64,000 nucleotides of DNA from an uncultured Candidatus Saccharibacteria bacterium (GCA_964633865.1 CAZWIJ010000006.1:25858-89857), one strand, 5' to 3'. Shown: positions 6,745 through 52,488, numbered from the stretch's first letter. The notes: generated by a model from the sequence alone, not told the origin. Numbers and translations: made by a program.

Positions 6745-8358
6745 ATGACATTAAATCAAATTTGTAGTATAATATATATTGATAAAAGTATAATAAATAT
6801 ATACATGAATAATAATATATACATGAATAATAAAAAGAGAGGATTTACATTATTAGAGATACTATTAGTAATAGCAGCAATAGGAATAATAGCAAGTATA
6901 GTAATAGTATCAATAAATCCATTAAGACAAATAGGAAAAGCAAGAAATGCATCAAGATATGCAAATATAAATACAATACAGAAAGCATTAGATCAATATA
7001 ATATAAATAATGGAAGATATCCATCAGGAATTACTGGATCATATCAAGAGATATGTGTAGATGGAAATACCACGAATTGTATAGATTTAGAATCAGATTT
7101 GGTCCCAACATATATAGCAGAAATACCAAAAGATCCAGAAGGAGGAGGCTATAAAGTAGCAATAAGTAGAGAAAATAATAAAGTAAGTTTATTAGCAGAT
7201 AAAGCAGATTTAGAACAAGATATATCAATTAACTTAATTTTGTATGCTGTTGGGGAAGTAGATGAAGAGTTTAATTCTAATGGAGGATTTAACTTATCTG
7301 TAGTAGCTATAGAGATACAGGAAGATAATAAAATGTTAGCGGTAGGAGACTTTACAGAATATCAAGGAGTAGGTGCAAATAGGATTATTAGGTTAAATAG
7401 TGACGGTAGTCGAGATGATTCTTTTGATATAGGAGTAGGATTTAATAATATTGTAAGATCAATAAAAATTCAAACTGATGGTAAATATATTGTAGCAGGG
7501 GACTTTACAGAATATCAAGGAGTAAGTGCAAACAGGATCATTAGACTTAATAGTGACGGTAGTCGAGATAACTCCTTTGATATAGGAGTAGGATTTGATA
7601 TTGATATAGGGGTTTCTTATAATAGTTATGTTGCTAAAATTCATATTCAAGATGATGGAAAAATTATTGTGGGGGGAGATTTTACAATATACCAAGGAGT
7701 AAGTGCAAATAGGATCATTAGGCTTAACAGTGATGGGAGTAGAGATAATACTTTTGATATAGGAGTAGGATTTGATAATTGGGTCAGAACAATAGAATCT
7801 CAGAGTGATGGTAAAGTATTGATTGGTGGTTGGTTTTCAGAATATCAAGGAGTAAGTGCAAATAGGATCGTTAGGCTTAACAGTGATGGAAGTCGAGATA
7901 ATACTTTTGATATAGGAGTAGGATTCAATGGTAATTCACTTAGATTTATAAAAATTCAAGCTGATGGTAAATATATTATAGCTGGTGACTTTAGTCAATA
8001 TCAAGGAATAAATGCAAATAGGATGATTAGACTAAATAGTGATGGAAGTCGAGATAATAGCTTTGATGTGGGCCAAGGATTTCCTAATACAGTTAATAAT
8101 GTTATTAGATATGGAAATATTCAAGGTGATGGGAAAATAATTGTTGTAGGAGACTTTACAGAATATCAAGGAGTAAGTACAAATGGAATAGTCAGATTAA
8201 ATAGTGATGGGAGTAGAGATAATAGTTTCGATATAGGTAATGGATTCAATGATAATGTATTAGATTTGAAAGTTAAAAATGATAATAAATTAGTTCTTTC
8301 TGGATCTTTTACAGAGTATAATGGTGTGGTATCAAATAGGATAGTAATATTAAAATAA
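6745..8358 (+). CDS. type IV pilin-like protein fused to 7x delta-60-type beta-propeller repeats
   Basis: KRGFTLLEILLVIAAIGI prepilin N-terminal cleavage/methylation motif; conserved pilin module; then seven ~58-aa repeats GDFTEYQGVSANRIIRLNSDGSRDNSFDIGVGF. Confidence 0.7.
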   Translation: MTLNQICSIIYIDKSIINIYMNNNIYMNNKKRGFTLLEILLVIAAIGIIASIVIVSINPLRQIGKARNASRYANINTIQKALDQYNINNGRYPSGITGSYQEICVDGNTTNCIDLESDLVPTYIAEIPKDPEGGGYKVAISRENNKVSLLADKADLEQDISINLILYAVGEVDEEFNSNGGFNLSVVAIEIQEDNKMLAVGDFTEYQGVGANRIIRLNSDGSRDDSFDIGVGFNNIVRSIKIQTDGKYIVAGDFTEYQGVSANRIIRLNSDGSRDNSFDIGVGFDIDIGVSYNSYVAKIHIQDDGKIIVGGDFTIYQGVSANRIIRLNSDGSRDNTFDIGVGFDNWVRTIESQSDGKVLIGGWFSEYQGVSANRIVRLNSDGSRDNTFDIGVGFNGNSLRFIKIQADGKYIIAGDFSQYQGINANRMIRLNSDGSRDNSFDVGQGFPNTVNNVIRYGNIQGDGKIIVVGDFTEYQGVSTNGIVRLNSDGSRDNSFDIGNGFNDNVLDLKVKNDNKLVLSGSFTEYNGVVSNRIVILK

Positions 8359-8362
8359 ACAA

Positions 8363-9631
8363 ATGGAAAAATTTATAATAGAAGGAGAACAATTTGGTAA
8401 ATCTGGAGAAATAGAAGTATATGGAGCTAAAAATTCAGCAATCAAATTATTACCAGCTAGTATACTGATTTGTGGAGAAGTAGTGCTTCAGAATATACCA
8501 GAAATTGAAGATACAATATATTTAATACAGATACTAGAAAGTCTTGGTGCAAAAGTTACAAAACTAAAAAAACATTCTTATAAGATAGATACCACTAGTA
8601 TCAATAATAATAAAATACCCACTCATCTAGCAATCAAAATGAGAGCCTCATTTCTGTTCATAGCTCCATTATTAGTGAGATTCGGAGAAGTGAGATTCCC
8701 GCATCCAGGAGGAGATTCTATAGGTAGAAGACCAATAGATATGACTTTAGAAATATTAACTTTGATGGGAGTAGAAGTTATAGAAAAAGGCGAAGAATAT
8801 ATCTTTAGAATGAAGCACAAACAACTATCAGCAATAGACTATATCTTTAAATGGATATCACACACCAGTACAGAATTACTAATCATATCAGCAGTACTCG
8901 CAAAAGGAAAAACCACAATCTATAATTCAGCAATGGAACCAGAAGTAACAGCCTTATGCGATATGTTAAGACAGGCTGGAGCTAAAATTACTGGAGATGG
9001 TACGACATATATAGAGATAGAAGGAGTAAAAAAATTAAATTCAGTAGAATATACCAATATTCCAGATAGATTAGAAGCAGGAACTTTCGCAGTATTGGGA
9101 GCTCTGACTAAAAGTGAAATAACAATTACAAATTGTAATCCAGATCATTTGAAAATTTTCTGGAAATTTTTACAAATGATGGGAGTGAAATTTAAGATTG
9201 AAAAAAACACAGTACATATTTTACCTACGAAATCAAGTTACAAAGCTATAGATATTAGAACTCACGAATATCCAGGATTCGTAACCGACTTACAAGCTCC
9301 CATAACTTTACTTTTGACACAAGCAAAAGGAACTGGAATAGTGCAAGAAACCATATTTGATGGTAGACTATATTATACGGATATATTAAATAAAATGGGA
9401 GCCAATATTATAATGTGTGATCCGTACAGAGTAGTAGTAAATGGCAAAACTCAATTATATGGACAAAAAATTGAAAGCCCAGATATTAGAGCAGCCATTA
9501 CATTTTTATTAGCTACATTAATAGCTAAAAATAATAGTGAAATTCATAATATCTATCATATAGATAGAGGTTATGAAAAAATTGAGACTAGATTCCAAAA
9601 ATTAGGTTTCAATATATCCAGAGCAAAATAA
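8363..9631 (+). CDS. murA: UDP-N-acetylglucosamine 1-carboxyvinyltransferase
   Basis: 422 aa, characteristic MurA N-terminus (IEGG..L.GEI.V.GAKNSA..LL.A.IL) and EPSP-synthase-fold length. Confidence 0.8.
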   Translation: MEKFIIEGEQFGKSGEIEVYGAKNSAIKLLPASILICGEVVLQNIPEIEDTIYLIQILESLGAKVTKLKKHSYKIDTTSINNNKIPTHLAIKMRASFLFIAPLLVRFGEVRFPHPGGDSIGRRPIDMTLEILTLMGVEVIEKGEEYIFRMKHKQLSAIDYIFKWISHTSTELLIISAVLAKGKTTIYNSAMEPEVTALCDMLRQAGAKITGDGTTYIEIEGVKKLNSVEYTNIPDRLEAGTFAVLGALTKSEITITNCNPDHLKIFWKFLQMMGVKFKIEKNTVHILPTKSSYKAIDIRTHEYPGFVTDLQAPITLLLTQAKGTGIVQETIFDGRLYYTDILNKMGANIIMCDPYRVVVNGKTQLYGQKIESPDIRAAITFLLATLIAKNNSEIHNIYHIDRGYEKIETRFQKLGFNISRAK

Positions 9632-9655
9632 TAATAATCAATTAAATTTAAAATT

Positions 9656-9895
9656 ATGTTAGAATTATACCAAATCATAGAATGTCCATTTTGTCAGAAA
9701 GTTAGAATGAAGTTAGATGAACTCGGCTTAGATTATATTTGCAGAACAGCTCCAAGAGGAAGTAATCAAAGAGAATTAATGGTGAAATTAGGAGGAAAAG
9801 AGCAAGTACCATTTTTAGTATATCAAGCTAAAAATATTGCTATGTATGAGTCAAGTGATATTATAAAATATTTGGAAGAGAATTATAAAAAATAA
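9656..9895 (+). CDS. glutaredoxin-family protein
   Basis: 79 aa with CPFCQKV active-site motif and thioredoxin-fold length. Confidence 0.5.
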   Translation: MLELYQIIECPFCQKVRMKLDELGLDYICRTAPRGSNQRELMVKLGGKEQVPFLVYQAKNIAMYESSDIIKYLEENYKK

Positions 9896-9923
9896 TTAAT
9901 CTAAAAAATAATATAATGAAGAA

Positions 9924-9948
9924 GAATAGGTAATCTATTCTTTTTTTG
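9924..9948 (+). terminator. rho-independent terminator (gaatag-N6-ctattc + T7)
   Basis: Hairpin followed by TTTTTTT directly after grx-like stop. Confidence 0.5.
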
Positions 9949-10081
9949 TTTATAAAATTATACTAATATTATTCATCTAAAATTTTTATTATAAAATTAA
10001 ACAAGTATGATATAATAAAGATATTAGATAAAAATCTAATAAAGAATAATAAGAAAGAACATAAGAATAAGTAAATATATT

Positions 10082-12172
10082 ATGAAAAAAGAACTTAAAA
10101 AAGATAATTTAAAAAAAAGAAGGAATAAAGGGTTTACATTATTAGAGATATTATTAGTAATAGCAGCAATAGGAATATTAGCAGGAATAGTAATAGTCGC
10201 AATAAATCCATTGAGACAAATAGCAAAAGTAAGACAAGCAGAGAGAGCAAGTGAGATAAATCAATTAAACAAAGCAATAGAGCAATATAATATAGCAGAA
10301 GGTAAATATCCAGATGCATTAACAATAGGAATAACAGAAGGAGAATATAGAGAGATATGTAATACAGGTAAATTAGATAGTGAAGCAGATTTAGTAGCAG
10401 AAGGAATAGATTGTAGTGATGATGGAGAAGGAAATGCATTATTAGACTTAAGAGTTTTAGTACCAACATATGTAGCAGAAATACCAAAAGATTCTGGATT
10501 ACAGTTTGGAATCGGAGAGAATATAATATATAAAATAGCAGAAGCAGCAGGAATAGATAGAACAGGATATTTGATAGGAGTACATCCAGAGAATAAAAAG
10601 GTAAGTATAAAAACAATAGAACCAGATATAAATGGAAATCCAATAGCACTAAATCCAATAGAAACACCAGATGGAGGAGGAGGTGGTGGAGACCCATTAT
10701 CTCCATCAGCCCCATGGGCTCCAATATTTGCGAAGTCACTTGGTAGTGAATTTAATGATGCAACAAACGACCTTGTAGTTGATAATCTTGGAAATAGCTA
10801 TATTATAGGTTCTTATAGTGGGAATCCATTCACATTTGGTAATGATATAAATTCCAATCCAATATCTATATCTCCTATAGGTAATATAAGTTCTTTTATA
10901 GCAAAATATGATAGTACGGGAGATCTAATTTGGGTAAAAAATATAGGAGGTACGAATGGAGAAGATAATGTAAGAAGTATAACTCTAGATAGTTCAAATA
11001 ATATTTATATTACAGGAGGATTTGGTTCATCCACACTTCCTTTAGGAAATGATATAAATAGTAATCCGATTACCCTAACAAATTCTGGGGCATCATTAGA
11101 CATTTTTATAATAAAATATAATTCGAATGGAGATTTAATATGGGGTAAAAGTTCTGGAAGTGCAGGTAGATCTGATATGGGAAATAGTATAGAATCTGAT
11201 TCTAGTGGTAATATTTATATAACTGGACAATATGCTTCTACAACACTAACCTTAGGAGAGGGAGGGAATCAAGTTAATTTGACTAATGCTGGTATATATA
11301 ATGATATATTTACTGCAAAATATGATACAGATGGAAATCTTTTATGGGCAAAGACTGCAGGTGGTACAGGATTCATTGATAATGGAGATAAATTAAGTGT
11401 AGATGATAGTGGAAATGTATATGTAGTAGGAACCTATAATTCTGCAACATTAAGTTTCGGTAATGATATAAATTCCAATCCAATATCTATATCTCCTATA
11501 GGTAATATAAGTTCTTTTATAGCAAAATATAATAGTACAGGAGATCTGCTATGGGCAAAAAAAATTGGAGGAAATGGTCCAGATGATATAAGAGGTATAA
11601 AAGTAGATTCTATAGGGAATTTATATATAGTAGGAATGTATAGATCTAATATATTAAGTTTTGGAAATGATATAAATGACAACCCAGTAAATCTAACTAA
11701 GACTGATGCTGACGATGCATTTATTGCAAGATATAATATTGATGGAGATTTAATTTGGTCAATCAATATTACTGGTTCAGGTGACCAACATGCAATATCA
11801 GTAGACATTGATAGTCAAAATAATATTTATATCACAGGATTTTTAGCAAATACTATAAATCTTGGAAATGATTTAGATAGTACCCCAGTTAATTTAACAA
11901 GTTTAGGTTATGCTAATGGATATATTGCAAAATACAATAATCTTGGTCAAGTGTTGAATTCTAAACTTATAAGTTCTGATTCTAGATCTGAAGGACAATT
12001 ATTATATGTCGGGTCGACTGGAGATGTTCATTTAGTAGGAATATTTAATTCATATCAATTAGATCTTGGAAATGATATAAATGAAAACCCATTATCAATA
12101 TTTAATCAAGGAGGAAATCCAGAAGGATATTCAGATGAAATATTCTTATTCAAATTAAATAAAGATTTTTAA
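10082..12172 (+). CDS. type IV pilin-like protein fused to SBBP-type beta-propeller repeats
   Basis: KGFTLLEILLVIAAIGI prepilin motif; conserved pilin module to ~aa 200; poly-Gly linker; repeated (S/D)SSGNIYITG...GDLIW.K units typical of SBBP beta-propeller repeat. Confidence 0.7.
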   Translation: MKKELKKDNLKKRRNKGFTLLEILLVIAAIGILAGIVIVAINPLRQIAKVRQAERASEINQLNKAIEQYNIAEGKYPDALTIGITEGEYREICNTGKLDSEADLVAEGIDCSDDGEGNALLDLRVLVPTYVAEIPKDSGLQFGIGENIIYKIAEAAGIDRTGYLIGVHPENKKVSIKTIEPDINGNPIALNPIETPDGGGGGGDPLSPSAPWAPIFAKSLGSEFNDATNDLVVDNLGNSYIIGSYSGNPFTFGNDINSNPISISPIGNISSFIAKYDSTGDLIWVKNIGGTNGEDNVRSITLDSSNNIYITGGFGSSTLPLGNDINSNPITLTNSGASLDIFIIKYNSNGDLIWGKSSGSAGRSDMGNSIESDSSGNIYITGQYASTTLTLGEGGNQVNLTNAGIYNDIFTAKYDTDGNLLWAKTAGGTGFIDNGDKLSVDDSGNVYVVGTYNSATLSFGNDINSNPISISPIGNISSFIAKYNSTGDLLWAKKIGGNGPDDIRGIKVDSIGNLYIVGMYRSNILSFGNDINDNPVNLTKTDADDAFIARYNIDGDLIWSINITGSGDQHAISVDIDSQNNIYITGFLANTINLGNDLDSTPVNLTSLGYANGYIAKYNNLGQVLNSKLISSDSRSEGQLLYVGSTGDVHLVGIFNSYQLDLGNDINENPLSIFNQGGNPEGYSDEIFLFKLNKDF

Positions 12173-12323: not shown

Positions 12324-12525
12324 TTACTTGTACCCACAAGAACATTCAGAAAAACAGCCTTTAAAAATTTGGAAATAGTGATGAGCCTCTTATATAATTA
12401 TATATGAGTTTTATCAGCTATAGCTATAATAAAGAGGGATCTTTAACAATTTAATTTAGGTAAAAATGCAATTTTACTTTAACTTTAACCAAAAAAAAGT
12501 GAATCAGAGTCTAAAAAGACGAGTT

Positions 12526-15512
<2,987 letters not shown>

Positions 15513-15640
15513 CTTTTTTGACATTGATTCACTAAATGTGAACTATAAAGTCAAAGTAAAAATTTACCTAAATTAAATTTAAAGTTCTAAGCTCAAAATT
15601 ACTAACCATATAGAGTAAAATCTGTATGGTTGGTGATAAA

Positions 15641-15757
15641 AATGTCTTTGTGATTTATTATAAAGGGGTACACCTGAAACATTCCGAACTCAGAAGTTAA
15701 GCCTTTATAAGTCGATGATACTCTTTATGGGGAAAGTAGATTATTGCAAAGACATTT
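15641..15757 (+). rRNA. rrf: 5S ribosomal RNA
   Basis: cctgaaacattccgaactcagaagttaagc matches the 5S helix III/loop C consensus (CCGAACTCAGAAGTGAAAC); terminal helix atgtctttg / caaagacat. Confidence 0.7.
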
Positions 15758-25547: not shown

Positions 25548-26003
25548 TTAAGGAATTATGAAGGATTGTTCAGATAATCCTTCTACAAAAGTTGTATTAT
25601 CAAAGTTATTTACCCCCCCAACACCAATATCTCCATTTGAATTTTTTATAATAAAGTAATATGTTCTATTATTTTGATTCGGATCTTTTGGAATTTCTTT
25701 TATATATGCTGGTTTTAATATTGATAAATCTACTAAATTAGTACATATGGAGTCACTGTCAAGGCAGATTTCATTTATAGAATTATCAGATAAGTTCTCA
25801 ATTGATGATGGGTATTGCTTGTTTTTTAAAGTGTATTGCTCTATGGCTGTGTAAATTTTTAACACATTGGATTTATTTACATTATCTTTGGATTGGATTA
25901 AAATAGAGTTTGGGTCAATAGATGTAAAAATAATACCCATTAATATACCTATAAGAGCTATACTTAATAATACTTCTAGTAAAGAAAAAGCTTTTTTTGT
26001 CAT
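25548..26003 (-). CDS. type IV pilin-like protein (short paralog of the pilin module)
   Basis: MTKKAFSLLEVLLSIALIGIL prepilin motif; body (IYTAIEQYTLKNKQYP...NEICLDSD...LKPAYIKEIPKDP) aligns with the N-terminal module of the three giant pilin fusions. Confidence 0.65.
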   Translation of the reverse strand: MTKKAFSLLEVLLSIALIGILMGIIFTSIDPNSILIQSKDNVNKSNVLKIYTAIEQYTLKNKQYPSSIENLSDNSINEICLDSDSICTNLVDLSILKPAYIKEIPKDPNQNNRTYYFIIKNSNGDIGVGGVNNFDNTTFVEGLSEQSFIIP

Positions 26004-26158
26004 GATTTTTAAATTATTCTTACATAATATAATTATATCATTATTCAATTGATATTGAAAATATTAATATATTATTTTTAAAATTGTATTAATCCTTATT
26101 CACATAAATTAGAAAATAAGGTATAATAGAAATGTATCTTATTTTAAATCACTAGCCA

Positions 26159-26839
26159 ATGGCAAATAAAAAAATACAACCAAGGAATAATCCTAAAAAT
26201 AGTACACAGAAATATCTTGATATAGAAAGTATTCAGGACAGTGTTGTCATATTAAAAACAGGGGGGCTTAGAGCTGTACTTATGTGTTCTTCAATTAACT
26301 TTGATTTGAAATCTAACGAAGAACAAGATTCTATTATCTATGCTTATCAGGGATTTCTAAATTCAATTGATTATCCTGTACAGATACAAATTACATCTAG
26401 AGTCTTAAATGTGTCAGGATACCTGAATTATTTAAAAGAATTTGAAGAGAATCAACCTAATGATCTTTTGAGAGCTCAAACAATTGAATATTCTAAATTT
26501 ATTAAGGAAATGGTAGATGGATCAAATATAGTAAATAAGATTTTTTATATAGTTATTCCTTTTGAACCAATAGAAAAACCTGAAGGATTACTTGATAAAA
26601 TAAGTTCTGGTTTCTCTCCAAAATCAGATAATTTAGTATATAGTAAAGAAGATTTTGAGAAATATAAGACACAGCTTTGGCAAAGAGTAAATAATATAAT
26701 GTATGGATTAAAGAGATCTGGAATATATATGACTCCTCTTAATACACAAGAATTAATAGAATTATTTTACTCAATTTATAATCCAGACAGTATTCCAGTA
26801 GAATCTCTTAGTAATGTAGAAACTTTAGATATAACTTAA
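26159..26839 (+). CDS. VirB4/TraE-like N-terminal domain protein (separate ORF)
   Basis: SVVILKTGGLRAVLMCSSINFDLKSNEEQDSIIYAYQGFLNSIDYPVQIQI resembles the N-terminal region of Gram-positive VirB4-like conjugation ATPases; stop 2 nt before next ORF in a different frame. Confidence 0.4.
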   Translation: MANKKIQPRNNPKNSTQKYLDIESIQDSVVILKTGGLRAVLMCSSINFDLKSNEEQDSIIYAYQGFLNSIDYPVQIQITSRVLNVSGYLNYLKEFEENQPNDLLRAQTIEYSKFIKEMVDGSNIVNKIFYIVIPFEPIEKPEGLLDKISSGFSPKSDNLVYSKEDFEKYKTQLWQRVNNIMYGLKRSGIYMTPLNTQELIELFYSIYNPDSIPVESLSNVETLDIT

Positions 26840-26841
26840 AC

Positions 26842-28692
26842 ATGTTTAAAAAAAATAAAATCAATCAAATAAGTGTTACTAGCAAAAATTTAGATTTAGA
26901 ATACCTTCGAGGTCAGAATAATCTAAAAGATTTTTTAGCACCTGCTTCAATTCTAGTTGATTCTAAATATCTTAAAATAGGTACAAAGTATGCAAGAACA
27001 ATTTTTGTTATGACATATCCTAGATTTTTGGTTACAGGTTGGTTTTCTCCTTTAATAAATTTGGATTATGTTATGGATGTTTCAATGTTTTTATACCCTA
27101 TGGATAGTGGAGTAATTCTTAAAACTTTAAGAACACAAGTAACTAGATTCCAAGCATCAATGTCATCAGCTTATGAGAAAGGTTTGGTTAGGGATCCTGT
27201 TGTAGAGACAGCATATAAAGATGCTGAGAACTTAAGAGATAGGTTGCAACAAGGAACAGAAAAGTTCTTTAGATTCGGATTGTATATGACAATATATGCA
27301 GATACAGAAAAACAAATAGACAAATATATTATTGATGTAAATAATATATTACAAACTAGAATGGTATATTCCAAACCTTGTTTATTTCAATCTGAACAAG
27401 GTTTCAAGTCAACAATGCCATTATTAATAGATGAATTGGATATTGGTAATAATTTAAACACGGCTCCATTATCAACTACATTTCCTTTTATATCTGCTAA
27501 TATTTCATCTAATAAAGGTATTTTATATGGAATTAATAGACATAATAATAGTTTGATTTTATTTGATAGATTTTCCATGGAGAATGCAAATGAAGTTATT
27601 TTCGCCAAATCAGGAGGTGGAAAAAGTTATTTGGCAAAGTTAGAAATATTGAGACATTTAATGTTGGGTGTGGAAGTTATTGTTATAGATCCAGAAAATG
27701 AATATTCATATTTAACAGAAGCTGTAGGAGGAACCTTTATCAAGATAGCTTTATCTTCTCGTCAGCATATTAATCCATTTGATTTGCCAGAGCCAAGATC
27801 AGATGAATCTTTATCAGATTTGATGAAGTCTAATATAGCAGATTTAACAGGTATGCTTAGGCTTATGTTGCAGGGAGCAAATTCCAAGGATAAATTCACT
27901 TCTGAGGAAGAGGCAATTATTGATCAAGCACTTTATGAGACATATGCTTCTAAAGATATTAATTTAGATACAGATACTCTTGAGGGAAAATCTACTCCAA
28001 CTTTTTCAGACCTAGAAAATATTTTGAGGAACATAGATGGAGGTGATATGTTAGCTTTAAGATTGTCAAAATATACAACAGGGAGCTTTGCTGGATTTAT
28101 TAATGAACCGACTAATATAGATTTTCAAAATCAGTTAATTGTATTCAATACAAGAGATATGGAAGATGAATTACAATCATTAGCTATGTTTTTGATTACT
28201 CAATTTATTTGGAAAGAGGTTAGAAGAACATTGAAAAAAAGAATATTAGTAGTTGATGAAGCTTGGATTATGATGAAACATGATGCTCCAGCTTCTTTCT
28301 TATTTTCTTTAGCAAAGAGAGCTAGAAAATATTATTTAGGATTAACTACAATTACCCAAGACATAGCTGATTTTCTAAATTCAGATTATGGAAAGGCAAT
28401 TCTAACAAATTCTTCTATGCAGATTCTTTTAAAACAATCACCAGCTTCTATAGATCTAATCAAACAAACATTTTACCTAACAGAAGAAGAGAAATATCTT
28501 TTATTAGAATCTGATGTGGGAGAAGGTATCTTCTTTGCAGGATTAAAGCATGCTGCAATCAAAGTAGTTGCATCTTATGGTGAAGATCAACTTATAACTT
28601 CAGATCCTGAACAAATACTAAAAATGAGACAAATTAAAAGTAGTCAAAATAATCAAAATTCTGAATCAGATCCATTCTCAATTAATTTATAA
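26842..28692 (+). CDS. VirB4/TraE/ConE-like type IV secretion ATPase (ATPase portion)
   Basis: Walker A FAKSGGGKSYLAK, Walker B VVDEAWIMM, and upstream TIFVMTYPRFLVTGWFSPL block characteristic of VirB4-family proteins. Confidence 0.6.
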   Translation: MFKKNKINQISVTSKNLDLEYLRGQNNLKDFLAPASILVDSKYLKIGTKYARTIFVMTYPRFLVTGWFSPLINLDYVMDVSMFLYPMDSGVILKTLRTQVTRFQASMSSAYEKGLVRDPVVETAYKDAENLRDRLQQGTEKFFRFGLYMTIYADTEKQIDKYIIDVNNILQTRMVYSKPCLFQSEQGFKSTMPLLIDELDIGNNLNTAPLSTTFPFISANISSNKGILYGINRHNNSLILFDRFSMENANEVIFAKSGGGKSYLAKLEILRHLMLGVEVIVIDPENEYSYLTEAVGGTFIKIALSSRQHINPFDLPEPRSDESLSDLMKSNIADLTGMLRLMLQGANSKDKFTSEEEAIIDQALYETYASKDINLDTDTLEGKSTPTFSDLENILRNIDGGDMLALRLSKYTTGSFAGFINEPTNIDFQNQLIVFNTRDMEDELQSLAMFLITQFIWKEVRRTLKKRILVVDEAWIMMKHDAPASFLFSLAKRARKYYLGLTTITQDIADFLNSDYGKAILTNSSMQILLKQSPASIDLIKQTFYLTEEEKYLLLESDVGEGIFFAGLKHAAIKVVASYGEDQLITSDPEQILKMRQIKSSQNNQNSESDPFSINL

Positions 28693-28697
28693 ATATT

Positions 28698-29813
28698 ATG
28701 ATTCCTTCTAAGTTAAAAAAAATTCTCATAATAGTTTCAATAATATTAACAATCATAGTAACAATTTTTATTATATATTTTTTATTTTTTAGATCTGGGG
28801 ATGATAACAATATTAACTCAACAATAAATTCACCCGTTGAAGATAATAATAATGATAAAAAAGCATCTATTTTAATTGAAGATGAAATTTTAGATTACAC
28901 AATAAGTCCTTCTAATGAAATAACTTATTATAAAAAATCAAATGGGCATACATATACAACAAATAATCAAGGATCTACTCCTAAACTGATAAGTGATTTT
29001 AATTTAAATAATTTATATAAAGTTGAATGGGCTCCTTCAAAACCATTTGTACTAATTAATTTAGATTCTAAATTTAGTGTATATAATTATATTGAAAAGA
29101 AGTCTTTTCCTTTTCCAAATGATATTTTTGAGGTAGGGTTTTTATCTAATAATAAAATATATTATGTTATCAAAAATGATATAGACTTATATGACATAGT
29201 TGTTTCTAATGAAGATGGATCCAATAAAACCCCAATTATGGTGATGATGACAGACAAAGTTTTATTGGATTCTGTACCACTAACAACAAATATAAGTCAA
29301 ATACTATCACCTCCAAGTGCATTTAGAGAATCTCCTTTAAGAATAATTGACACAATCCAAAAAACAGCAAGTTCTATCTTGGAACCAAAATATGGTTTGA
29401 ATGTATCTTGGTCTCCGACTGGAGAGAATGGCATAATAACATATAGTAGCGAAAAAGGAGGTAAAACTATGTATATGTCGCTTATAGACAACAAAGGAGT
29501 AGAACAAATTTCTTTTAAGCCAATAGGGACAATAGCAGAAAAGATAACTTGGTCTCGTGATGGCAATATTGTTTATTTTACACAACCATTAGTGCCTAAT
29601 AACAAGGTAATGCCTGATGACTATTATGATAATAAAGTGGGTAAATTTTATGAAGCTTTATATAAAATAGATTTAACTTCATTTAAAGTCGAAATATTAT
29701 CAAAAAATATAGGTTTAGTTGATTCAAGAGACTTAAAGTTGAGTGCATCTGGTAAGGAAATATTTTTTATAAATAAGAATGATAATAAACTCTATAAATA
29801 TTCTATTGAATAA
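28698..29813 (+). CDS. membrane-anchored PD40/TolB-like beta-propeller protein
   Basis: N-terminal TM; repeated WSP.G/WSRDG...Y motifs (VSWSPTGENGIITYSS, ITWSRDGNIVYF, VEWAPSKPFVLI). Confidence 0.4.
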   Translation: MIPSKLKKILIIVSIILTIIVTIFIIYFLFFRSGDDNNINSTINSPVEDNNNDKKASILIEDEILDYTISPSNEITYYKKSNGHTYTTNNQGSTPKLISDFNLNNLYKVEWAPSKPFVLINLDSKFSVYNYIEKKSFPFPNDIFEVGFLSNNKIYYVIKNDIDLYDIVVSNEDGSNKTPIMVMMTDKVLLDSVPLTTNISQILSPPSAFRESPLRIIDTIQKTASSILEPKYGLNVSWSPTGENGIITYSSEKGGKTMYMSLIDNKGVEQISFKPIGTIAEKITWSRDGNIVYFTQPLVPNNKVMPDDYYDNKVGKFYEALYKIDLTSFKVEILSKNIGLVDSRDLKLSASGKEIFFINKNDNKLYKYSIE

Positions 29814-36112: not shown

Positions 36113-37360
36113 ATGACAAAAAACCCAATAGTAGTTGGTCTAGATGTAGGAACTTACTTTACAAAAATTGCAGTTGCAAAAAAATTAAGAGAAGAAAAAG
36201 AACCTTCTATTATAGCTCTAGGAGTATCTCCAACTGAAGGAATGAGAAAAGGAGTCGTAGTAGATATAAAAGATGTTACCAGAAGTATCGTTATAGCATT
36301 AGAGTCAGCTTCAAAAATGATACAAGAAGACATTACATCTGTTCATATTTCTTTGAATGGTGATCAGATAATCTGTAAAAATACTAGTGGTAAAGTTGCA
36401 GTATCTAGGGCTGATGGGGAAGTTACAGAAGATGATTTAAATAGAGTTTATCAAACTGCTAATCCTGGGCCAAGTGGACAAAATAAAATGATATTAGATA
36501 TAATTCCAAAAAGCTTTACCCTAGATGAAGAGACCGAAATCAAACACCCTGTAGGTATGAATGGTATCAGATTAGAGCTAGATGCTGTTTTGGTTGAAAG
36601 TACTATACCTCCAATAAAAAATTTAGAAAAATGTATAAATGATGCTGGACTTCATATACTATCAAGTGAGACAGCGATAATTACTAGCTCAAGTGCTATT
36701 CTTACAAAAAAACAAAAAGAATTAGGGGTGATTGTCATAGATATGGGTGCTGGAACAACATCCTTTGCTGTATATGAAGAGGGTAGATTAATTCATTTTA
36801 AAATATTACCAATAGGATCAGCTCACATAACTAGTGATATTGCAATTGGTATGAGAATTCCTGTTGACTTAGCAGAAAAAGTTAAAATAATGTTTGGTTA
36901 TGCTATGGAAAGTCATATTCCAAATGATAAAAGAGTAAAAATAGATTTGTCAAAAATTAATGAAGAAGAAGTTGGAACTTATTCTGTAAATTTTTTATCG
37001 GGGATTATAGAAGCTAGATTGAAAGAAATCTTTTCTTTGATATCTAAAGATCTAAGAGAGATAGGGAGAGAAGGTTTATTACCAGCTGGTGTTATATTAG
37101 TTGGAGGTGGAGCTAATCTAAGATCGATTATAGATTTAGCTAAAAGAGAGTTAAAATTACCTGTAAAGATAGCTATCCCAAGAGGGGTAGAAGGGAGTGT
37201 TGCTGATGTGGATAATCCTATGTTTGCTACATTAGTAGGACTTTTGTTGACTGGATTCTCAGAGCAGAATACTATGGAATCAAATCAATCATTTGAAGAA
37301 AAATCTAATTTTATTAATAATATTTGGAATAAAATAGTTAAAATATTTATCCCAGAATAA
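36113..37360 (+). CDS. ftsA: cell division protein FtsA
   Basis: PIVVGLDVGTYFTKIAV...GVVVDIKDVTRSI... FtsA ASKHA-fold pattern, 415 aa. Confidence 0.65.
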   Translation: MTKNPIVVGLDVGTYFTKIAVAKKLREEKEPSIIALGVSPTEGMRKGVVVDIKDVTRSIVIALESASKMIQEDITSVHISLNGDQIICKNTSGKVAVSRADGEVTEDDLNRVYQTANPGPSGQNKMILDIIPKSFTLDEETEIKHPVGMNGIRLELDAVLVESTIPPIKNLEKCINDAGLHILSSETAIITSSSAILTKKQKELGVIVIDMGAGTTSFAVYEEGRLIHFKILPIGSAHITSDIAIGMRIPVDLAEKVKIMFGYAMESHIPNDKRVKIDLSKINEEEVGTYSVNFLSGIIEARLKEIFSLISKDLREIGREGLLPAGVILVGGGANLRSIIDLAKRELKLPVKIAIPRGVEGSVADVDNPMFATLVGLLLTGFSEQNTMESNQSFEEKSNFINNIWNKIVKIFIPE

Positions 37361-40434: not shown

Positions 40435-41157
40435 TTATTTTGCTATCACTAAAGCAAAAACATTACGAAATCCAGATCTTTGTAATGCTTTTGCAGCTTC
40501 ATCAAGTGTGGATAATGTGGTGGTTACATCATCAATTAGAATAATATCTTTATCAATATAATCATTATTTGGCTCGCATTTAAATATATCTATTACATTT
40601 TTAACTCTTTCTTGTTTACTACTAAGACTCATTTGGGGTGAATTATTTTTTATTCTTTGTAAATTTAGAAATAACTCTGAATTAGGAATATTTTTTTGTA
40701 AAAATTCTGCTAATAGGTTGGATTGATTATATCCTCTAAATTTCAACTTATTTATATGTAAGGGGATTGGTGCAAAAATCAAGTTTGACTTATAATCTTT
40801 GCTTAAATGAGATTTTAAGGTTTCCAAAAGTATTTGTCCTAAAATTCTATCTAATGAAATTAAATTTTTGTATTTAAAATAATGGACAGCTTTTTTTAAA
40901 GCAGAATTTTTGAAACTATTAGTACAAAGAACAGTGTTTAAATATTTTTTTGTATGAAATTTAGTAAGAGTTGTGTTGTTATTATTTGTAAATAAGCTGG
41001 TAATATTATTATCAGAGTTTTCTCTTTGAATTATAATTGGTTTTGATTTTAATTTTGGTAGGCAATCATTACAAACTCCATGAAAACTTAATTTATCACA
41101 AAGTATGCATTGAGTAGGAATAAAAGTATCAATCGGTAATTGTAAAAACTTTAACAT
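40435..41157 (-). CDS. comFC: ComF-family competence protein (phosphoribosyltransferase domain)
   Basis: N-terminal Cys-rich zinc finger (CILCDKLSFHGVCNDC) + C-terminal PRTase motif IILIDDVTTTLSTL. Confidence 0.65.
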   Translation of the reverse strand: MLKFLQLPIDTFIPTQCILCDKLSFHGVCNDCLPKLKSKPIIIQRENSDNNITSLFTNNNNTTLTKFHTKKYLNTVLCTNSFKNSALKKAVHYFKYKNLISLDRILGQILLETLKSHLSKDYKSNLIFAPIPLHINKLKFRGYNQSNLLAEFLQKNIPNSELFLNLQRIKNNSPQMSLSSKQERVKNVIDIFKCEPNNDYIDKDIILIDDVTTTLSTLDEAAKALQRSGFRNVFALVIAK

Positions 41158-41231: not shown

Positions 41232-42308
41232 ATGTTTAATTTCAATGCCAATTTTAATAAATCTTCTGTTGGAATAGATATTGGTACTCAATCTGTTAAG
41301 ATAGTAGAAATACAAAATAAAGATAAAGTCTATAATATATCAAATTATGCTATATGGGATGATGATCTAGATCATACTATACAGGAAAGAAATTCTAATT
41401 ATGAAAGTACAGCAGAATATATATCAGAAATAATTCTAAATTTATTAAAAACAAGTGACATTCATACTAAAGATTGTTATATAAGCATACCATCTTACTT
41501 AGCATTTTCAGCTTTGATAGATGTTCCTATTATGTCAATTGAAGAATTGACTAAAGCTATTCCACTTGAAGCTAGTCAATATATACCTACATCTATTGAT
41601 GAGGTTCAGATTGACTGGATTGTTCTTGGGAATTCATTACAACCTAATTCTCTAGAAATATTATTGATAGCTATACCTAATGAAGTAATTAATAAGTATT
41701 TAACAATTGCTAATTTGTTAAACTTAAATATTAAAGGTTTTGAATTAGATATATTTTCTCAAATAAGATCAACTAATTTGAATAATGTTCCAACTCTAAT
41801 TATAGATATAGGTGCAAGAAGCTCTATGGTAAGTATTGTTAATGAAAAACAACAACTTTTGATAACTAAATCATTTGATTTTGGTGGAAATCAAATAACT
41901 AATCAAATTATGTTATTTAATGAAGGTATTAGTATCAAAGAAGCAGAAACTCTTAAAAAGCAAAATGGATTAATCGGTGAGAATCAATCAGTTGTTGATA
42001 TAATAAAGCAAACTTATAATAACTTTATATTACAAAATGTTGATGTAGTAATAAATGATTATTATAAAAAACATACTAAAAATATAGAGGAAGTATTAGT
42101 AGTAGGAGGAACTTCTCGTATGAAAGGAATATCAGATTATACTGGAAGTACTTTGAAGCAAATTGATAATAGACTCTCCAATATAAAGACATCTGTTGGT
42201 TCACCTAATAATTCTATTAAAATCACTACAGATATACAAAATATGTTTGTAGAAAAAATATGGCAAGATCTTTCCCTTGCAATTGGTATAGCTCTAAAAA
42301 AGAATTAA
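41232..42308 (+). CDS. pilM: type IV pilus assembly protein PilM
   Basis: VGIDIGTQSVKIVEI... actin-like ATPase, first gene of pilMNO-pilB operon. Confidence 0.65.
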   Translation: MFNFNANFNKSSVGIDIGTQSVKIVEIQNKDKVYNISNYAIWDDDLDHTIQERNSNYESTAEYISEIILNLLKTSDIHTKDCYISIPSYLAFSALIDVPIMSIEELTKAIPLEASQYIPTSIDEVQIDWIVLGNSLQPNSLEILLIAIPNEVINKYLTIANLLNLNIKGFELDIFSQIRSTNLNNVPTLIIDIGARSSMVSIVNEKQQLLITKSFDFGGNQITNQIMLFNEGISIKEAETLKKQNGLIGENQSVVDIIKQTYNNFILQNVDVVINDYYKKHTKNIEEVLVVGGTSRMKGISDYTGSTLKQIDNRLSNIKTSVGSPNNSIKITTDIQNMFVEKIWQDLSLAIGIALKKN

Positions 42309-42311
42309 TAT

Positions 42312-42866
42312 ATGAAATCTAAAAAAACAGAAAATATATTAACATTTATACCAAAAGATCAAAAAACAATCTTTGTTCCTAAAATTAAAAGAACAGAATT
42401 TAATTATATAGAATTAAGTATTATTTCTATAATTATATTAATTTTAAATTTTGGTATTCTTTATGCTGTAAAAGAATTTACATTGAGTAAAGATATTAGT
42501 GTTATAAAATCTCAGATATCAGAAATAGATTCCAAAAATCAAAATATTTATCCAGCAGAAGGGATTGTAGAAACAATAAAAGGCTATTCTGGTCTTTTAG
42601 AGTCTCAATATAAGTTGAATATAGCTATGACTGATATTCAGAAAAGAATTAATTCTGGATCAAAAATTAGTTCTTTATCTTATATTAAAGATACTAAGAC
42701 TTTAGAATTATCATTAGAATTACCTAATATAGGAGTAATAGCATCACAATTAGAAGAGTTTAGAAAGTCAGAATATATTTCTACTGTTAATTATCAAGAA
42801 ATAGGTATAGGAGATAAAAATACTGCTGGTAATGTGTCTACAAAATTCACTATAATTTTACAATAA
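42312..42866 (+). CDS. pilN: PilN-like bitopic membrane protein
   Basis: Short cytoplasmic N-terminus, single TM, coiled/periplasmic domain; operon position after pilM. Confidence 0.45.
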   Translation: MKSKKTENILTFIPKDQKTIFVPKIKRTEFNYIELSIISIIILILNFGILYAVKEFTLSKDISVIKSQISEIDSKNQNIYPAEGIVETIKGYSGLLESQYKLNIAMTDIQKRINSGSKISSLSYIKDTKTLELSLELPNIGVIASQLEEFRKSEYISTVNYQEIGIGDKNTAGNVSTKFTIILQ

Positions 42867-42867
42867 T

Positions 42868-43455
42868 ATGAATGAAAGACAAAAATTATATGATATATTG
42901 TTAGTAGTTTTGAGTTTGGTATTAGTCTACTTAGGATATTCTTTTTGGAGTGATCAATACAAAGTATCTTTAGAGGAGAAAACAAAGTTAAGTAATGAAT
43001 TATCTATAAAAAAAGAATACACAGAAATTCAAGATATAGCTGAGTTTAATAAAAAAATATCTGAATTTACTCCTCCAGGTGATCCTAAAGAAAATATATT
43101 AGCTCCATTATCTGAAATAGAAAAAAAATCTGGGGCTAAAATAACAAAATTAGAGGTAAAAGAAGGTGTGGTGAAAACTGATGCTAAAACTGAATCGGAA
43201 GAGATGTTAACAGAAGATATCCCAGCTTCTGATACATCAGTAGAATCAAATTCAGTTGAAACAGTAAAAGAATTAAAATTTTTAGAGTCTCAAGTTGAAA
43301 TCCAAATTACTGGAAGATTTGGCAGTATCAATTCTTTCGTGCAGTATTTAGAAGAAAATTCTAGAATTATGGATATCATTCAGTTTAATTATACAGTTCA
43401 AGATAAAAGTGACGAAATAGAAGCTACAATAATTATGAAAGTATATGCAAAATAA
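42868..43455 (+). CDS. pilO: PilO-like bitopic membrane protein
   Basis: Single N-terminal TM + coiled-coil region; operon position. Confidence 0.4.
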   Translation: MNERQKLYDILLVVLSLVLVYLGYSFWSDQYKVSLEEKTKLSNELSIKKEYTEIQDIAEFNKKISEFTPPGDPKENILAPLSEIEKKSGAKITKLEVKEGVVKTDAKTESEEMLTEDIPASDTSVESNSVETVKELKFLESQVEIQITGRFGSINSFVQYLEENSRIMDIIQFNYTVQDKSDEIEATIIMKVYAK

Positions 43456-43615
43456 GTTAAACAAAAATAAGGATAAAATTATAATAATTATTTTAGTATT
43501 AGCAAATATAATAGCAATACTTTATATAATGTACACTACATTTTTTATACAAATATTGCAAGAAGAGGTTAATCTAAATTCAGAAATAGAGATAATTAAC
43601 AAGAATTTTAAATAA
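43445..43615 (+). CDS. unannotated small membrane protein (56 aa)
   Basis: ORF overlapping pilO stop, single TM helix (IIIIILVLANIIAILYIMYTTFFI), fills the pilO-pilB gap. Confidence 0.25.
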   Translation: MQNKLNKNKDKIIIIILVLANIIAILYIMYTTFFIQILQEEVNLNSEIEIINKNFK

Positions 43616-43622
43616 TATATAT

Positions 43623-45344
43623 ATGATAATAGATTATATAAAAATATTAGGTTTATTAAAAGATAGATATTCTGATAGATTTATTAGTTATGAGAATATT
43701 GATGAATCTCAGAATGAGCAGGTAAAAAAATACATAACAGAAAATTTTTCTGAAAAAGAAATTCTAGAAGTATATGGAGAAACAATTAATATTCCTTTTA
43801 TAGAATTAATTCCTAATGAAATACCTCAAAATCTATATAGTGTTTTTGAAGAAAAAATTTTGCAAGGATATCAGTTCGTTCCCTTTGACATACAAAATGA
43901 TAAAATATGCATAGCAATAGTAGATCCATATAATTATAATGCTATTCAGGCTATCAAATTTGTTCTTCGTGATAAAGGGGTAGATTTTAAATTATTTTTA
44001 ACTACAAGAAATGACTTAAATTCAGTTTTTAATGCTTTTCAGAATATAAGTGAAGAAGTAAAAAAGAGTCTTTCAGAATTAGATGAAGAGAAACTAAAGA
44101 AAAAAGGAGATGATCTAATAGAAGAAGTAAAACCAGATAAAGAAGATGTAGAAGTTGCTCCAATTATAAAAATAGTATCAGTTATACTAAAAAATGCAGT
44201 TGAAGGAGGAGCTTCAGATATTCATATAGAAGGTATAAGTAAAGGAGTAAGAGTAAGATTTAGAGTAGATGGAATTTTACATAATACTTTGACAATTCCA
44301 AAAGATGTTTATCCAGCAGTGGTTGCTAGAATAAAGATATTATCAAACCTTAAAATAGATGAGACAAGAAGACCTCAAGATGGAAGATTCTCTATTCTAG
44401 AAAATCAAAAAAAGATTGATTTTCGTGTATCGACATTTCCAACTGAATTTGGAGAAAAAGTAGTACTTAGAATTCTGGATACTTCTAAAGGAATAGCTAC
44501 AATCGATAAACTAGGATTTATAGGCCCAAAAGCAAGTATAATCAAAAAATCTGTAGATAAACCATTTGGTATGGTATTAGTAACAGGACCAACAGGATCA
44601 GGAAAGTCTACGACTTTGTATACCTTACTTAATATGGTTAATGACGAAGAAATAAATATAGTTACACTGGAAGATCCGGTAGAGTATTTTATGGATGGAA
44701 TCAATCAGTCACAAGTAAGAACAGAAATAGGATATTCATTTGCATCAGGATTAAGATCAATATTGAGACAAGATCCGGATATAATAATGGTAGGGGAGAT
44801 TCGAGATGGAGAGACAGCTAGCCTAGCAGTTCAGTCTGCTTTGACAGGTCATTTAGTTTTTTCAACTCTACATACTAATGATGCTCCAGGTTCAATCCCA
44901 AGATTAATAGATATGGGAGTGGAGTCATTTTTATTAGGCTCATCTTTAGAGCTTATTATAGCACAAAGACTAGTAAGAACACTTTGTGATAAATGTAAAA
45001 AACAGGTAAAAATAGATTCTGGAGTAAAAGAATATATCACAAAAGCTTTATCTAACTTAGATCCAAGTTATATTAGTAAGTATTACAAGGGAGATTTTGA
45101 TAGTCTATATGAACCAGTTGGTTGCTCCTCTTGTAAAAATGGATTTAAAGGTAGAACTGTAATCTTTGAAATAGTTCAAATATCAGAAGAACTACAATAT
45201 ATAATAGAAAAAAATCAGGGAGAAGATAAGATTAGAGAAAATTTAGCACAAAACAATTTTGTAAGTCTAAAGCAAGATGGTATCTTTAAAGTTCTAAATG
45301 GTAGAACATCTTTGCAAGAATTATTAAATACAGTTGATATTTAA
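43623..45344 (+). CDS. pilB: type IV pilus assembly ATPase PilB (GspE family)
   Basis: Walker A VLVTGPTGSGKSTTLY, Asp box, His box, tetra-Cys motif (CDKC...CSSC), N-terminal GSPII_E_N domain. Confidence 0.85.
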   Translation: MIIDYIKILGLLKDRYSDRFISYENIDESQNEQVKKYITENFSEKEILEVYGETINIPFIELIPNEIPQNLYSVFEEKILQGYQFVPFDIQNDKICIAIVDPYNYNAIQAIKFVLRDKGVDFKLFLTTRNDLNSVFNAFQNISEEVKKSLSELDEEKLKKKGDDLIEEVKPDKEDVEVAPIIKIVSVILKNAVEGGASDIHIEGISKGVRVRFRVDGILHNTLTIPKDVYPAVVARIKILSNLKIDETRRPQDGRFSILENQKKIDFRVSTFPTEFGEKVVLRILDTSKGIATIDKLGFIGPKASIIKKSVDKPFGMVLVTGPTGSGKSTTLYTLLNMVNDEEINIVTLEDPVEYFMDGINQSQVRTEIGYSFASGLRSILRQDPDIIMVGEIRDGETASLAVQSALTGHLVFSTLHTNDAPGSIPRLIDMGVESFLLGSSLELIIAQRLVRTLCDKCKKQVKIDSGVKEYITKALSNLDPSYISKYYKGDFDSLYEPVGCSSCKNGFKGRTVIFEIVQISEELQYIIEKNQGEDKIRENLAQNNFVSLKQDGIFKVLNGRTSLQELLNTVDI

Positions 45345-45414
45345 TCTAAAAATAACATTGCATAAATATAATCATATAGTATAATATAGATATATGAATT
45401 AATCAGAAAAATAT

Positions 45415-45792
45415 ATGAAAAAAAGAATACTATTGGTGGAAGATGATGAGTTTATTACTCAGATGTACTCTCGGAAATTAGAAGAAGAAGGATATGAAGT
45501 TCTTAGTTTTCCTGATGCAACAGAAGCAAAGAAGTCTTTACAAGAAGGAGTTATGGAAATAAATTTAATTTTATTAGATATACTTTTACCTACAATTTCA
45601 GGTTATGATTTTTTGAAATGGATAAAAAGTTATGATCAATATATAGATATTCCAGTTATTATGTTGAGTAATTTATCAGGACAAGTAGACATAGATAAAG
45701 GTTATAATTTGGGAGCAGTAGACTTTATTGTGAAGTCTAACTATACTCCAAATGAAGTAGTAAGAAAAGTAAAAAATTATATAGATAAATAA
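45415..45792 (+). CDS. single-domain response regulator (CheY/PilH-like) embedded in pil operon
   Basis: ILLVEDDEFI...LLDILLP receiver motifs; paralog of 21459-21836. Confidence 0.7.
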   Translation: MKKRILLVEDDEFITQMYSRKLEEEGYEVLSFPDATEAKKSLQEGVMEINLILLDILLPTISGYDFLKWIKSYDQYIDIPVIMLSNLSGQVDIDKGYNLGAVDFIVKSNYTPNEVVRKVKNYIDK

Positions 45793-45802
45793 AGTTAAAA
45801 AT

Positions 45803-46873: not shown

Positions 46874-46885
46874 TAATAAAAATAT

Positions 46886-52415: not shown

Positions 52416-52488
52416 GGGTGCATAGCTCAGTCGGTAGAGCAGAGGCCTTTTAAGCCTTGTGTCGGTGGTTCGAACCCACCTGTGCCCA
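52416..52488 (+). tRNA. tRNA-Lys (anticodon UUU)
   Basis: Cloverleaf: acceptor gggtgca/tgtgccc, D-arm gctcagtcggtagagc, anticodon stem gaggc/gcctt with loop cTTTTaa, T-arm ggtggttcgaacccacc; CCA not encoded. Confidence 0.85.

Follow-up and report, generated by a model that had tools for sequence, protein, structure and literature searches.

The 64,000-nt stretch of DNA from an uncultured Candidatus Saccharibacteria bacterium analysed here (GC content of 27.6%; hereafter the window) carries three genes, P1, P2 and P3, which encode modular pilins, i.e. proteins made of an N-terminal type IV pilin module joined through a linker to an extra domain foreign to pili. We consider it probable that P1-P3 act as modular type IV pilins of a bacterium that belongs to the CPR (Candidate Phyla Radiation, or Patescibacteria) and that their C-terminal domains, called payloads below, bind a host or a partner cell. 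The original prediction had proposed a modular display of binding domains on type IV pilus subunits. The data below support it; display on a pilus and a role in attachment are suggested by analogy. The three open reading frames (ORFs) of 537, 696 and 660 aa on which the prediction was built are present where it had placed them, as is a free-standing short paralog. The features of these four genes are as follows (residues of P1 are numbered from nucleotide 6805; a slash marks the cleavage site).

6805-8358, + strand: P1, modular pilin, within ORF 6745-8358 of 537 aa (matches to N_methyl, T2SSG, GspG over the head, DUF5122 seven times and TIGR02608; AlphaFold2 model); leader MNNNIYMNNKKRG/F
6805-7254, + strand: P1 pilin module, to about residue 150
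7282-8355, + strand: P1 seven-bladed delta-60/DUF5122 beta-propeller, about residues 160-517
10082-12172, + strand: P2, modular pilin of 696 aa (N_methyl, SBBP, repeat period)
10082-10666, + strand: P2 pilin module, residues 1-195, followed, before the propeller, by the Gly/Pro linker PDGGGGGGDPLSPSAP
about 10739-12169, + strand: P2 SBBP-type beta-propeller, seven repeats of about 68 aa
54027-56009, + strand: P3, modular pilin of 660 aa
54027-54581, + strand: P3 pilin module, residues 1-185
54594-55184, + strand: P3 tandem FN3 domains, residues about 190-386
55209-56006, + strand: P3 Gly-rich (31% Gly) right-handed beta-helix-like domain, residues about 395-660
25548-26003, - strand: short paralog of 151 aa without payload (N_methyl, T2SSG, GspG over residues 20-139)

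For P1, an ORF does open at 6745, where the prediction had started the protein, but translation most likely begins at the ATG at 6805 or at 6823, which gives a leader of 7 to 13 aa like those of P2 and P3. A near-identical protein has a public gene call of 517 aa, and a TATAAT-like sequence lies within the longer ORF. The sequence atatatacatgaataataa is directly duplicated just 5' of the prepilin motif (6797-6832); the duplication creates the two in-frame ATGs and, therefore, two possible leader lengths. The ORF of the short paralog extends from 25548 to 26048 (- strand), with a probable ATG start at 26003.

All four proteins begin with a class III signal, composed of a basic leader, a Gly or Ala at -1, Phe+1, Glu+5 and about 20 hydrophobic residues. 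The motifs are KKRG/FTLLEILLVIAAIGIIASIVIV in P1, RNKG/FTLLE in P2, NKKG/FTLLE in P3 and MTKKA/FSLLE in the short paralog, the only one with Ala at -1. Each protein scored above the curated cut-offs of PF07963 (N_methyl; 22.5-27.5 bits for a cut-off of 21.2) and of TIGR02532. PF08334 (T2SSG) likewise passed its cut-off in P1 and in the short paralog, where its alignment spans the globular head; the GspG model TIGR01710 covered the head there as well, below its cut-off. Sub-threshold matches to GspG, ComGC and PilA models were obtained for all four proteins. Since every one of these scores lies under the cut-off (for TIGR01710, 56.4 bits for P1 and 37.2, 35.5 and 36.6 bits for the others, against 88.85 for equivalogs), the proteins are not GspG, ComGC or PilA equivalogs. 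Judged from these matches, the module is related to GspG in fold and superfamily and is not a GspG ortholog. A profile built from the four modules matched the alpha1 region of the solved GspG, PilA and PilE structures.

The AlphaFold2 models of P1 and P3 (mean predicted local distance difference test, pLDDT, of 85.4 and 80.6) display the pilin 'lollipop', i.e. a helix of some 54 residues at the N-terminus (16-37 and 39-69 in P1, 18-39 and 41-71 in P3) followed by a small beta head of three to four short strands. The head contains a Cys pair, of which the first member is invariant and the second at least 90% conserved among 150 family members. A complete pilin module, as proposed, is thus borne out by the N_methyl and TIGR02532 scores, the GspG-type matches and the modelled helix and head. 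The same holds for its homology with the short pilin, which is 35-43% identical to P1-P3 and has the T2SSG match in common with P1. Three copies of a near-identical module of about 200 aa, in the words of the prediction, were not what we found. The P2 and P3 modules are about 60% identical over some 185-195 aa, that of P1 is 42-47% identical to either, and identities of 85-95% are limited to the first 35 or so mature residues. Lacking an insert of about 20 aa and a variable loop of 18-25 aa, both found in P2, the P1 module is only about 145 aa long. By tblastn, the window holds four copies of the module and no more, together with two pilins of lower similarity. Neither a C-terminal sorting motif nor a second transmembrane segment can be seen in P1-P3.

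The payloads differ from one protein to the next. In P1, PF17164 (DUF5122) matched in seven stretches (E = 3.6e-93, 305.9 bits for a cut-off of 27) and the delta-60 model TIGR02608 also passed its threshold (E = 5.5e-48, 160.6 bits for 76.5); the AlphaFold2 model has a propeller of seven blades with a pLDDT above 90, and 141-nt repeats spaced by 153-177 nt are detectable in the DNA. The top Foldseek matches of P1 in the PDB are mostly beta-propeller proteins, CylK and virginiamycin B lyase being found among many non-enzymatic ones. In P2, SBBP (PF06739) matched in five stretches (E = 1.3e-20, 73.5 bits for 20.5). Seven repeats of about 68 aa were counted, six by motif anchoring and one, the sixth in order, by inspection of the sequence, and the DNA repeat period of 204-210 nt agrees with units of that size. 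We conclude from its sequence that the C-terminal region of P2 is an SBBP propeller. It falls outside the LipL53 family, for which the SBBP model gave 129 bits (E = 2e-37) against the 400 required. Blades 1 and 4 (10827-10967 and 11448-11588) share a 141-nt segment that is 86% identical and an identical 26-residue stretch, FGNDINSNPISISPIGNISSFIAKY; other pairs of blades are far less similar, which points to duplication or conversion within the gene in recent times.

P3 contains two fn3 domains (PF00041, E = 5e-10, 39.9 bits for a cut-off of 25), and its top Foldseek matches are tandem FN3 structures. Its Gly-rich C-terminal domain matched no PDB sequence and no Pfam family, not even Gly_rich_2, a frequent payload of the scaffold. 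An assignment by sequence family was attempted and dropped: the homologs of the domain taken alone bear no informative annotation and are perhaps inflated by the Gly-rich composition. In the predicted structure it is an adhesin-like right-handed beta-helix, whose fold is, according to Foldseek, most like those of the secreted adhesins EtpA, HMW1, FHA, Awp and tapirin. The delta-60 propeller of P1, the SBBP-like propeller of P2 and the FN3 domains plus Gly-rich solenoid of P3 were all anticipated, and they all stand: the proposed profile searches (N_methyl, TIGR02608, PF06739, fn3) gave matches above the cut-offs, and the P1 model includes both the pilin head and the propeller.

The module is not confined to the window. 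A profile search, exhaustive over 1.84 billion cluster representatives (clusters at 50% identity), returned 59,012 clusters at E ≤ 1e-3, 5,776 at E ≤ 1e-10 and 277 at E ≤ 1e-30. Of the 5,776 clusters, almost every one whose organism is named comes from Patescibacteria. Among the best 150 matches the module was N-terminal in every case, and 129 of the proteins exceeded 300 aa, 31 of them 500 aa. When the P2 module was used in a word-indexed search, 950 proteins were obtained at E ≤ 1e-5. The named homologs of the pilin-module proteins of the window are almost all from Patescibacteria/CPR (Minisyncoccia, Paceibacteria, Parcubacteria). In an alignment of 110 sequences, Phe+1 and Glu+5 were invariant and x-F-[TS]-x-x-E was kept in 109; position -1 is Gly in 101 members and Ala, as in the short paralog, in eight. 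This conservation argues that the ability to polymerise is under selection.

A Pfam scan of 110 long representatives identified 53 families, two of which (N_methyl and T2SSG) are the pilin module itself. Lectin-like and propeller domains dominate the identified payloads, with Laminin_G_3 (32 proteins) far in front. Next come Gly_rich_2 (13), DUF5122 (11), SBBP (6), ArabFuran-catal (5), RCC1 and a sialidase N-terminal lectin (4 each), fibrinogen-C, Lcl_C and a neurotoxin receptor-binding domain (3 each), and fn3, PA14 and Flg_new (2 each). Precomputed Pfam annotations add FGE-sulfatase-like, DUF285 and GLEYA domains and one RHS fusion. This last protein (P0199, 1,077 aa) has RHS repeats (PF05593) and an N-terminal region that matches 17% of the P3 query, and hints at toxin-type rather than adhesin-type payloads in some members. 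The original prediction had named three findings that would speak against it, namely no pilin fold in the module, no propellers and no wider distribution; all three are contradicted, the last by the 5,776 clusters and the array of payload families.

Among the species representatives of GTDB, 236 loci with a confirmed module were found, many Patescibacteria metagenome-assembled genomes (MAGs) having several copies. The best module identities were 44-58% over most of the length, higher values being restricted to short N-terminal fragments. Of the 80 loci retained most are labelled Patescibacteria and some Gammaproteobacteria, Acidimicrobiales or Desulfobacula, the weakest of these 80 (L077, L079 and L080) being ordinary pilins of other phyla. 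At many loci, one or two short copies of the module (about 145-160 aa) lie directly downstream of, and in the same orientation as, up to three other pilin-like genes. From this structural-pilin position we infer that the scaffold is major-pilin-like and not derived from the minor pilins of a tip complex. One 627-aa fusion (L072) belongs to the sub-type of the short paralog. One locus (L038, CAYHBZ010000001.1) is a tandem array of one short (148 aa) and four long pilins (558, 544, 547 and at least 310 aa), with ORFs starting near 2309, 4025, 4471, 6109 and 7758. In its 544-aa member a Laminin_G_3 payload appears from the sequence to be inserted within the pilin head, since the conserved head segment C-LDL..L.PTY...P.DP stands C-terminal of the payload; this topology resembles that of GspK, unlike a C-terminal graft.

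Concerning the age of the three fusions, the longest exact DNA identities between the copies in the window are of 18-26 nt, and nucleotide identity tracks amino acid identity, dropping beyond codon 90 to about 55-60%. We rejected recent gene conversion or switching of cassettes, of an inverted pilE/pilS type, because there is no long shared DNA and because nucleotide identity decays along with protein identity; a high fraction of identical codons between copies is expected in a genome of 27.6% GC. Payload swapping at syntenic loci found no support either, a homolog of P3 (P0122) and one of P2 (P0127) being found in other metagenomes within unrelated housekeeping contexts. All three payload types recur in a Paceibacteria MAG from Lake Mendota (JBIKVS). 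Its delta-60 fusion aligns with P1 over 452 aa at 52% identity and its SBBP-type fusion with P2 over 668 aa at 33%; a third protein was assigned to the FN3 plus Gly-rich type from its Pfam match and from inspection of its sequence. The MAG carries an FGE-sulfatase-like fusion as well. From this conserved trio and the absence of recent recombination it follows that P1-P3 are old, maintained paralogs and not rapidly shuffled cassettes. The payloads are therefore 'interchangeable', as had been proposed, when the family is taken as a whole, whereas over short times they are not.

How such proteins could reach a filament is suggested by a group of pilus genes situated between P2 and P3 and by an oxidoreductase gene.

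41232-42308, + strand: PilM (PilM_2, E = 1.3e-33)
42312-42866, + strand: gene in the PilN position, no Pfam match
42868-43455, + strand: PilO-like (PilO, E = 4e-4, 21.0 bits, just below the 22-bit cut-off)
43623-45344, + strand: PilB (T2SSE, E = 3.6e-127, with MshEN)
45415-45792, + strand: response-regulator receiver (Response_reg, E = 1.8e-20)
45803-46873, + strand: PilT (T2SSE, E = 8.7e-47)
46886-48109, + strand: PilC (T2SSF, E = 6.7e-54)
49219-49614, + strand: pilin of another sequence class, 131 aa (N_methyl, KKG/FTLIELLVVVAIIG)
49681-50403, + strand: pilin of another sequence class, 240 aa (N_methyl, KKG/FTLIELLVVVAIIG)
59643-60287, + strand: membrane-anchored DsbA/MdbA-like thioredoxin with a CPAC motif (Thioredoxin_4, E = 5.1e-31; DSBA, E = 1.2e-18)

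The window thus encodes a cognate assembly machinery (PilM, a marginal PilO-like protein, PilB, PilT and PilC), and the genes from 41232 to 48109, as identified by their sequences, could polymerise P1-P3. The two pilins downstream of pilC, of class GFTLIELLVVVAIIG (N_methyl, E = 2.4e-7 and 4.3e-8), are candidate major pilins. No secretin was found among the genes of the window, which fits the published picture for CPR bacteria (PMC6744442). The thioredoxin could form the disulfide between the two Cys residues of the pilin head, a link that would be in keeping with the enrichment of MdbA-like oxidoreductases in CPR bacteria and their connection with pilin folding (PMC6744442).

We propose that P1-P3 are made as prepilins, the class III signal peptide being visible in the sequence, and that the hydrophobic N-terminal half of alpha1 would carry them into the membrane. 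A prepilin peptidase, with its gene outside the window, would then cut after Gly-1 and methylate Phe+1, and the membrane DsbA-like enzyme would probably form the disulfide of the small GspG-like head. PilM, N, O, B and C would build the subunits into a type IV filament by way of the alpha1 helix and Glu+5. They would be present in low copy number, most probably at or near the tip of the filament, because a payload of 350-480 aa is too bulky for regular packing in the shaft. By analogy, the payload would project and bind a ligand, most probably a glycan or a protein, on the surface of the host or partner cell, and retraction driven by PilT would draw the small cell onto its host. Three paralogs would provide each cell with several binding specificities on one scaffold.

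Several points weigh against this proposal. Cleavage, polymerisation and surface display of P1-P3 are predictions from what the genes encode, and propellers and beta-helices can also be enzymes. The pilins adjoining pilC belong to another sequence class, only 27-31% identical to the P1 module, so that they need not build the filament, if any, that accepts P1-P3. The genes lie outside the pilus operon, each with its own AT-rich upstream region, scattered among housekeeping genes (rsmE-like, murA-like, glutaredoxin-like, rRNA genes, rsmA-like and uvrB, recognised by eye from their translations and with Pfam); as to homologs of P2 and P3 elsewhere, they are not syntenic. No GspH/I/J/K-like minor-pilin cluster that could supply the partner subunits of P1-P3 was found in the window. 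The Foldseek comparisons were run on whole chains, where payloads dominate the matches. Lastly, no prepilin peptidase (Peptidase_A24-like) was detected among the scanned ORFs of the window; PilD is reported to be widespread in CPR bacteria (PMC6744442).

Some of these points would be accommodated if P1-P3 were anchored at the cell surface rather than borne by a filament, the signal and module serving only to export the payloads and to hold them at the membrane or on a short stub. The dispersal of the genes away from the pilus operon, the bulk of the payloads compared with a module of about 140 aa and the different class of the neighbouring candidate major pilins all favour it, and the archaeal 'bindosome' of Sulfolobus, made of sugar-binding proteins with class III signal peptides, offers a likeness. 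An anchor, however, could do without much of what has been kept over thousands of clusters: the complete head, both its Cys residues and the unvarying Glu+5, which is linked to the packing of subunits in filaments. The short form of the module is, moreover, located downstream of other pilin-like genes, on the same strand, at many Patescibacteria loci, and loss of the propeller pilin PilX2 of the saccharibacterium TM7x gives the same phenotype as loss of the major pilin or of the ATPase (PMC11623550). Although it is the strongest of the competing explanations, we regard it as unlikely. More improbable still is that the payloads are enzymes or effectors (glycoside hydrolases, lyases, envelope-modifying proteins) which, carried on a pilus or pseudopilus, breach the wall of a host or feed on it. 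Other members of the family do have ArabFuran-catal, FGE-sulfatase-like or RHS domains, the P1 model resembles CylK and virginiamycin B lyase among its many non-enzymatic likenesses, and right-handed beta-helices include enzymes of the pectate lyase type. Pilins bearing peptidases are also known (PMC8179133). Yet no catalytic family matched P1-P3 at E ≤ 0.1, the best matches of the P3 beta-helix are adhesins and not lyases, and the commonest identified payload of the family is lectin-like.

The explanation to which we give the least credit, and only a very small share of it, makes P1-P3 subunits of a Com-type competence pilus or of a pseudopilus akin to that of type II secretion systems (T2SS), with payloads that capture DNA or cargo. 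There are weak matches to ComGC, ComGD, ComGE and GspG/H models, a gene upstream of pilM (40435-41157) is ComF-like by eye, without any Pfam match, and natural competence has been reported in CPR bacteria (PMC10187176). But the ComG and GspG scores of P2 and P3 reach only 21-37 bits for cut-offs of 49-89, and that of P1 with GspG 56 bits for 88.85. PilT and PilM/O are present, as is typical of retractile systems of the type IVa pilus kind, and no pilin is known in which a propeller, FN3 or beta-helix payload binds DNA. The T4P-2 system of TM7x, PilX2 included, makes no contribution to competence (PMC11623550). In decreasing order of plausibility, then, membrane-anchored display, enzymatic payloads and a competence or secretion pseudopilus are all less consistent with the data than modular pilins that bind other cells, because the full head and Glu+5 are conserved, lectin-like payloads predominate, the P3 beta-helix is adhesin-like and PilT is present.

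Most CPR bacteria resist cultivation, and type IV pili are the sole attachment apparatus with experimental support in cultivated members. CPR bacteria probably use modular pilins for host attachment. If the payloads are the elements that recognise hosts, they are tractable soluble domains, and the repertoire can be compared across genomes for its relation to host range. A broader proposal, which we make tentatively and would not expect to hold as a whole, is that the scaffold is a display platform centred on Patescibacteria and derived from a major pilin, onto which many binding modules and now and then toxin-type ones (lectins, several families of propellers, beta-helices and RHS) were grafted, in a few cases within the head. 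Were this true, the set of subunits of each episymbiont would decide which hosts it can seize, as receptor-binding proteins set the host range of phages, and the payload repertoire would predict the hosts of uncultured CPR bacteria.

Other features of the window deserve mention. The interval 6745-12172 also contains two genes unrelated to pilins, one MurA-like of the EPSP_synthase family (8363-9631) and one glutaredoxin-like (9656-9895). Directly downstream of P2 lie 23S and 5S rRNA genes (12517-15752, + strand); no 16S gene was detected in the 64 kb, and the rRNA operon therefore appears unlinked. The only tRNA gene of the window is a tRNA-Lys(TTT) (52416-52489). Within the pilus locus, pilC is separated from the two pilins downstream by a pair of genes (48114-48975, + strand), one small and DUF6922-like, the other for a nucleotidyltransferase toxin of the AbiEii type (E = 3e-15); the pair has the look of an abortive-infection or type IV toxin-antitoxin module. 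A second actin-like protein of the FtsA/PilM family (395 aa), separate from ftsA (36113-37360) and pilM, is encoded in the segment 18195-20973 (+ strand), ahead of a protein of 524 aa whose Baseplate_J-like match is weak (E = 1.4e-4). A group of genes on the + strand (26159-29813), divergent from the short pilin, includes one for a P-loop ATPase of the VirB4/TraG type (26842-28692; TraG P-loop, E = 5e-24) with unannotated ORFs on both sides. It may belong to a type IV secretion system of the monoderm type, such as has reportedly been described for Patescibacteria. Near the DsbA-like gene, a secreted cytochrome b5-like haem-binding protein is encoded on the - strand (60646-61062).

Among the closest known systems is PilX2 of TM7x (Nanosynbacter lyticus, Saccharibacteria), a minor pilin that ends in an RCC1 beta-propeller of seven blades and the deletion of which halves binding to the host (PMC11623550). 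Like P1, it combines, in a CPR bacterium, a pilin N-terminus with a seven-bladed propeller payload. It differs in being encoded within a pilus locus and in having no canonical PilD signal predicted, whereas P1-P3 are dispersed and have the canonical G/FTLLE. The propeller families are also distinct (RCC1 against DUF5122 in P1 and SBBP in P2; RCC1 occurs on the present module in 4 of 110 cases). The TM7x work was the only one found in the literature on Patescibacteria, pilins and propellers. In Pseudomonas and Neisseria type IVa pili, PilY1/PilC similarly places a beta-propeller for adhesion at the tip, with variable modules on a constant carrier (PMC8179133). PilY1, however, is not a pilin and docks via a minor-pilin complex, while P1-P3 are pilins themselves, in which no Pfam match to PilY1/Neisseria_PilC (PF05567) was found. 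The module has the alpha1 helix of GspG and ComGC and, in P1 and the short paralog, their head too (PF08334, TIGR01710), a small one; unlike in those systems, T2SS secretin and outer-membrane components are missing here and large C-terminal payloads are present. As for EtpA, HMW1, FHA, UpaB and the Caldicellulosiruptor tapirins, P3 shares with them a predicted beta-helix without belonging to any of their sequence families (no Pfam or PDB sequence match). It is not a two-partner secretion or autotransporter protein, given that its export signal is a class III signal peptide instead of a TpsB or autotransporter barrel.

Modular pilins as such were defined by Raynaud et al. (PNAS 2021; PMC8179133). 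The prototypes are the Streptococcus sanguinis proteins PilB (pilin plus vWA), shown to be an adhesin, and PilC (pilin plus lectin), and the accompanying InterPro survey lists more than 1,200 modular pilins with 264 architectures, CPR phyla being prominent. Pilin-delta-60 (IPR013431) and pilin-FN3 (IPR003961) architectures are already in that survey; the accessible text of its supplementary files contains no SBBP (IPR010620). The payloads studied experimentally there are vWA and ConA domains, as against a delta-60 propeller, an SBBP propeller and two FN3 domains with a beta-helix in P1-P3. The scaffold of the latter is one family, mainly of Patescibacteria, with a head and a Cys pair of its own, and was not delineated in the survey. 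No published account of it as one family, with its 50 or so types of payload, seems to exist. P1-P3 extend the published concept of modular pilins and are neither a new kind of protein nor a new principle.

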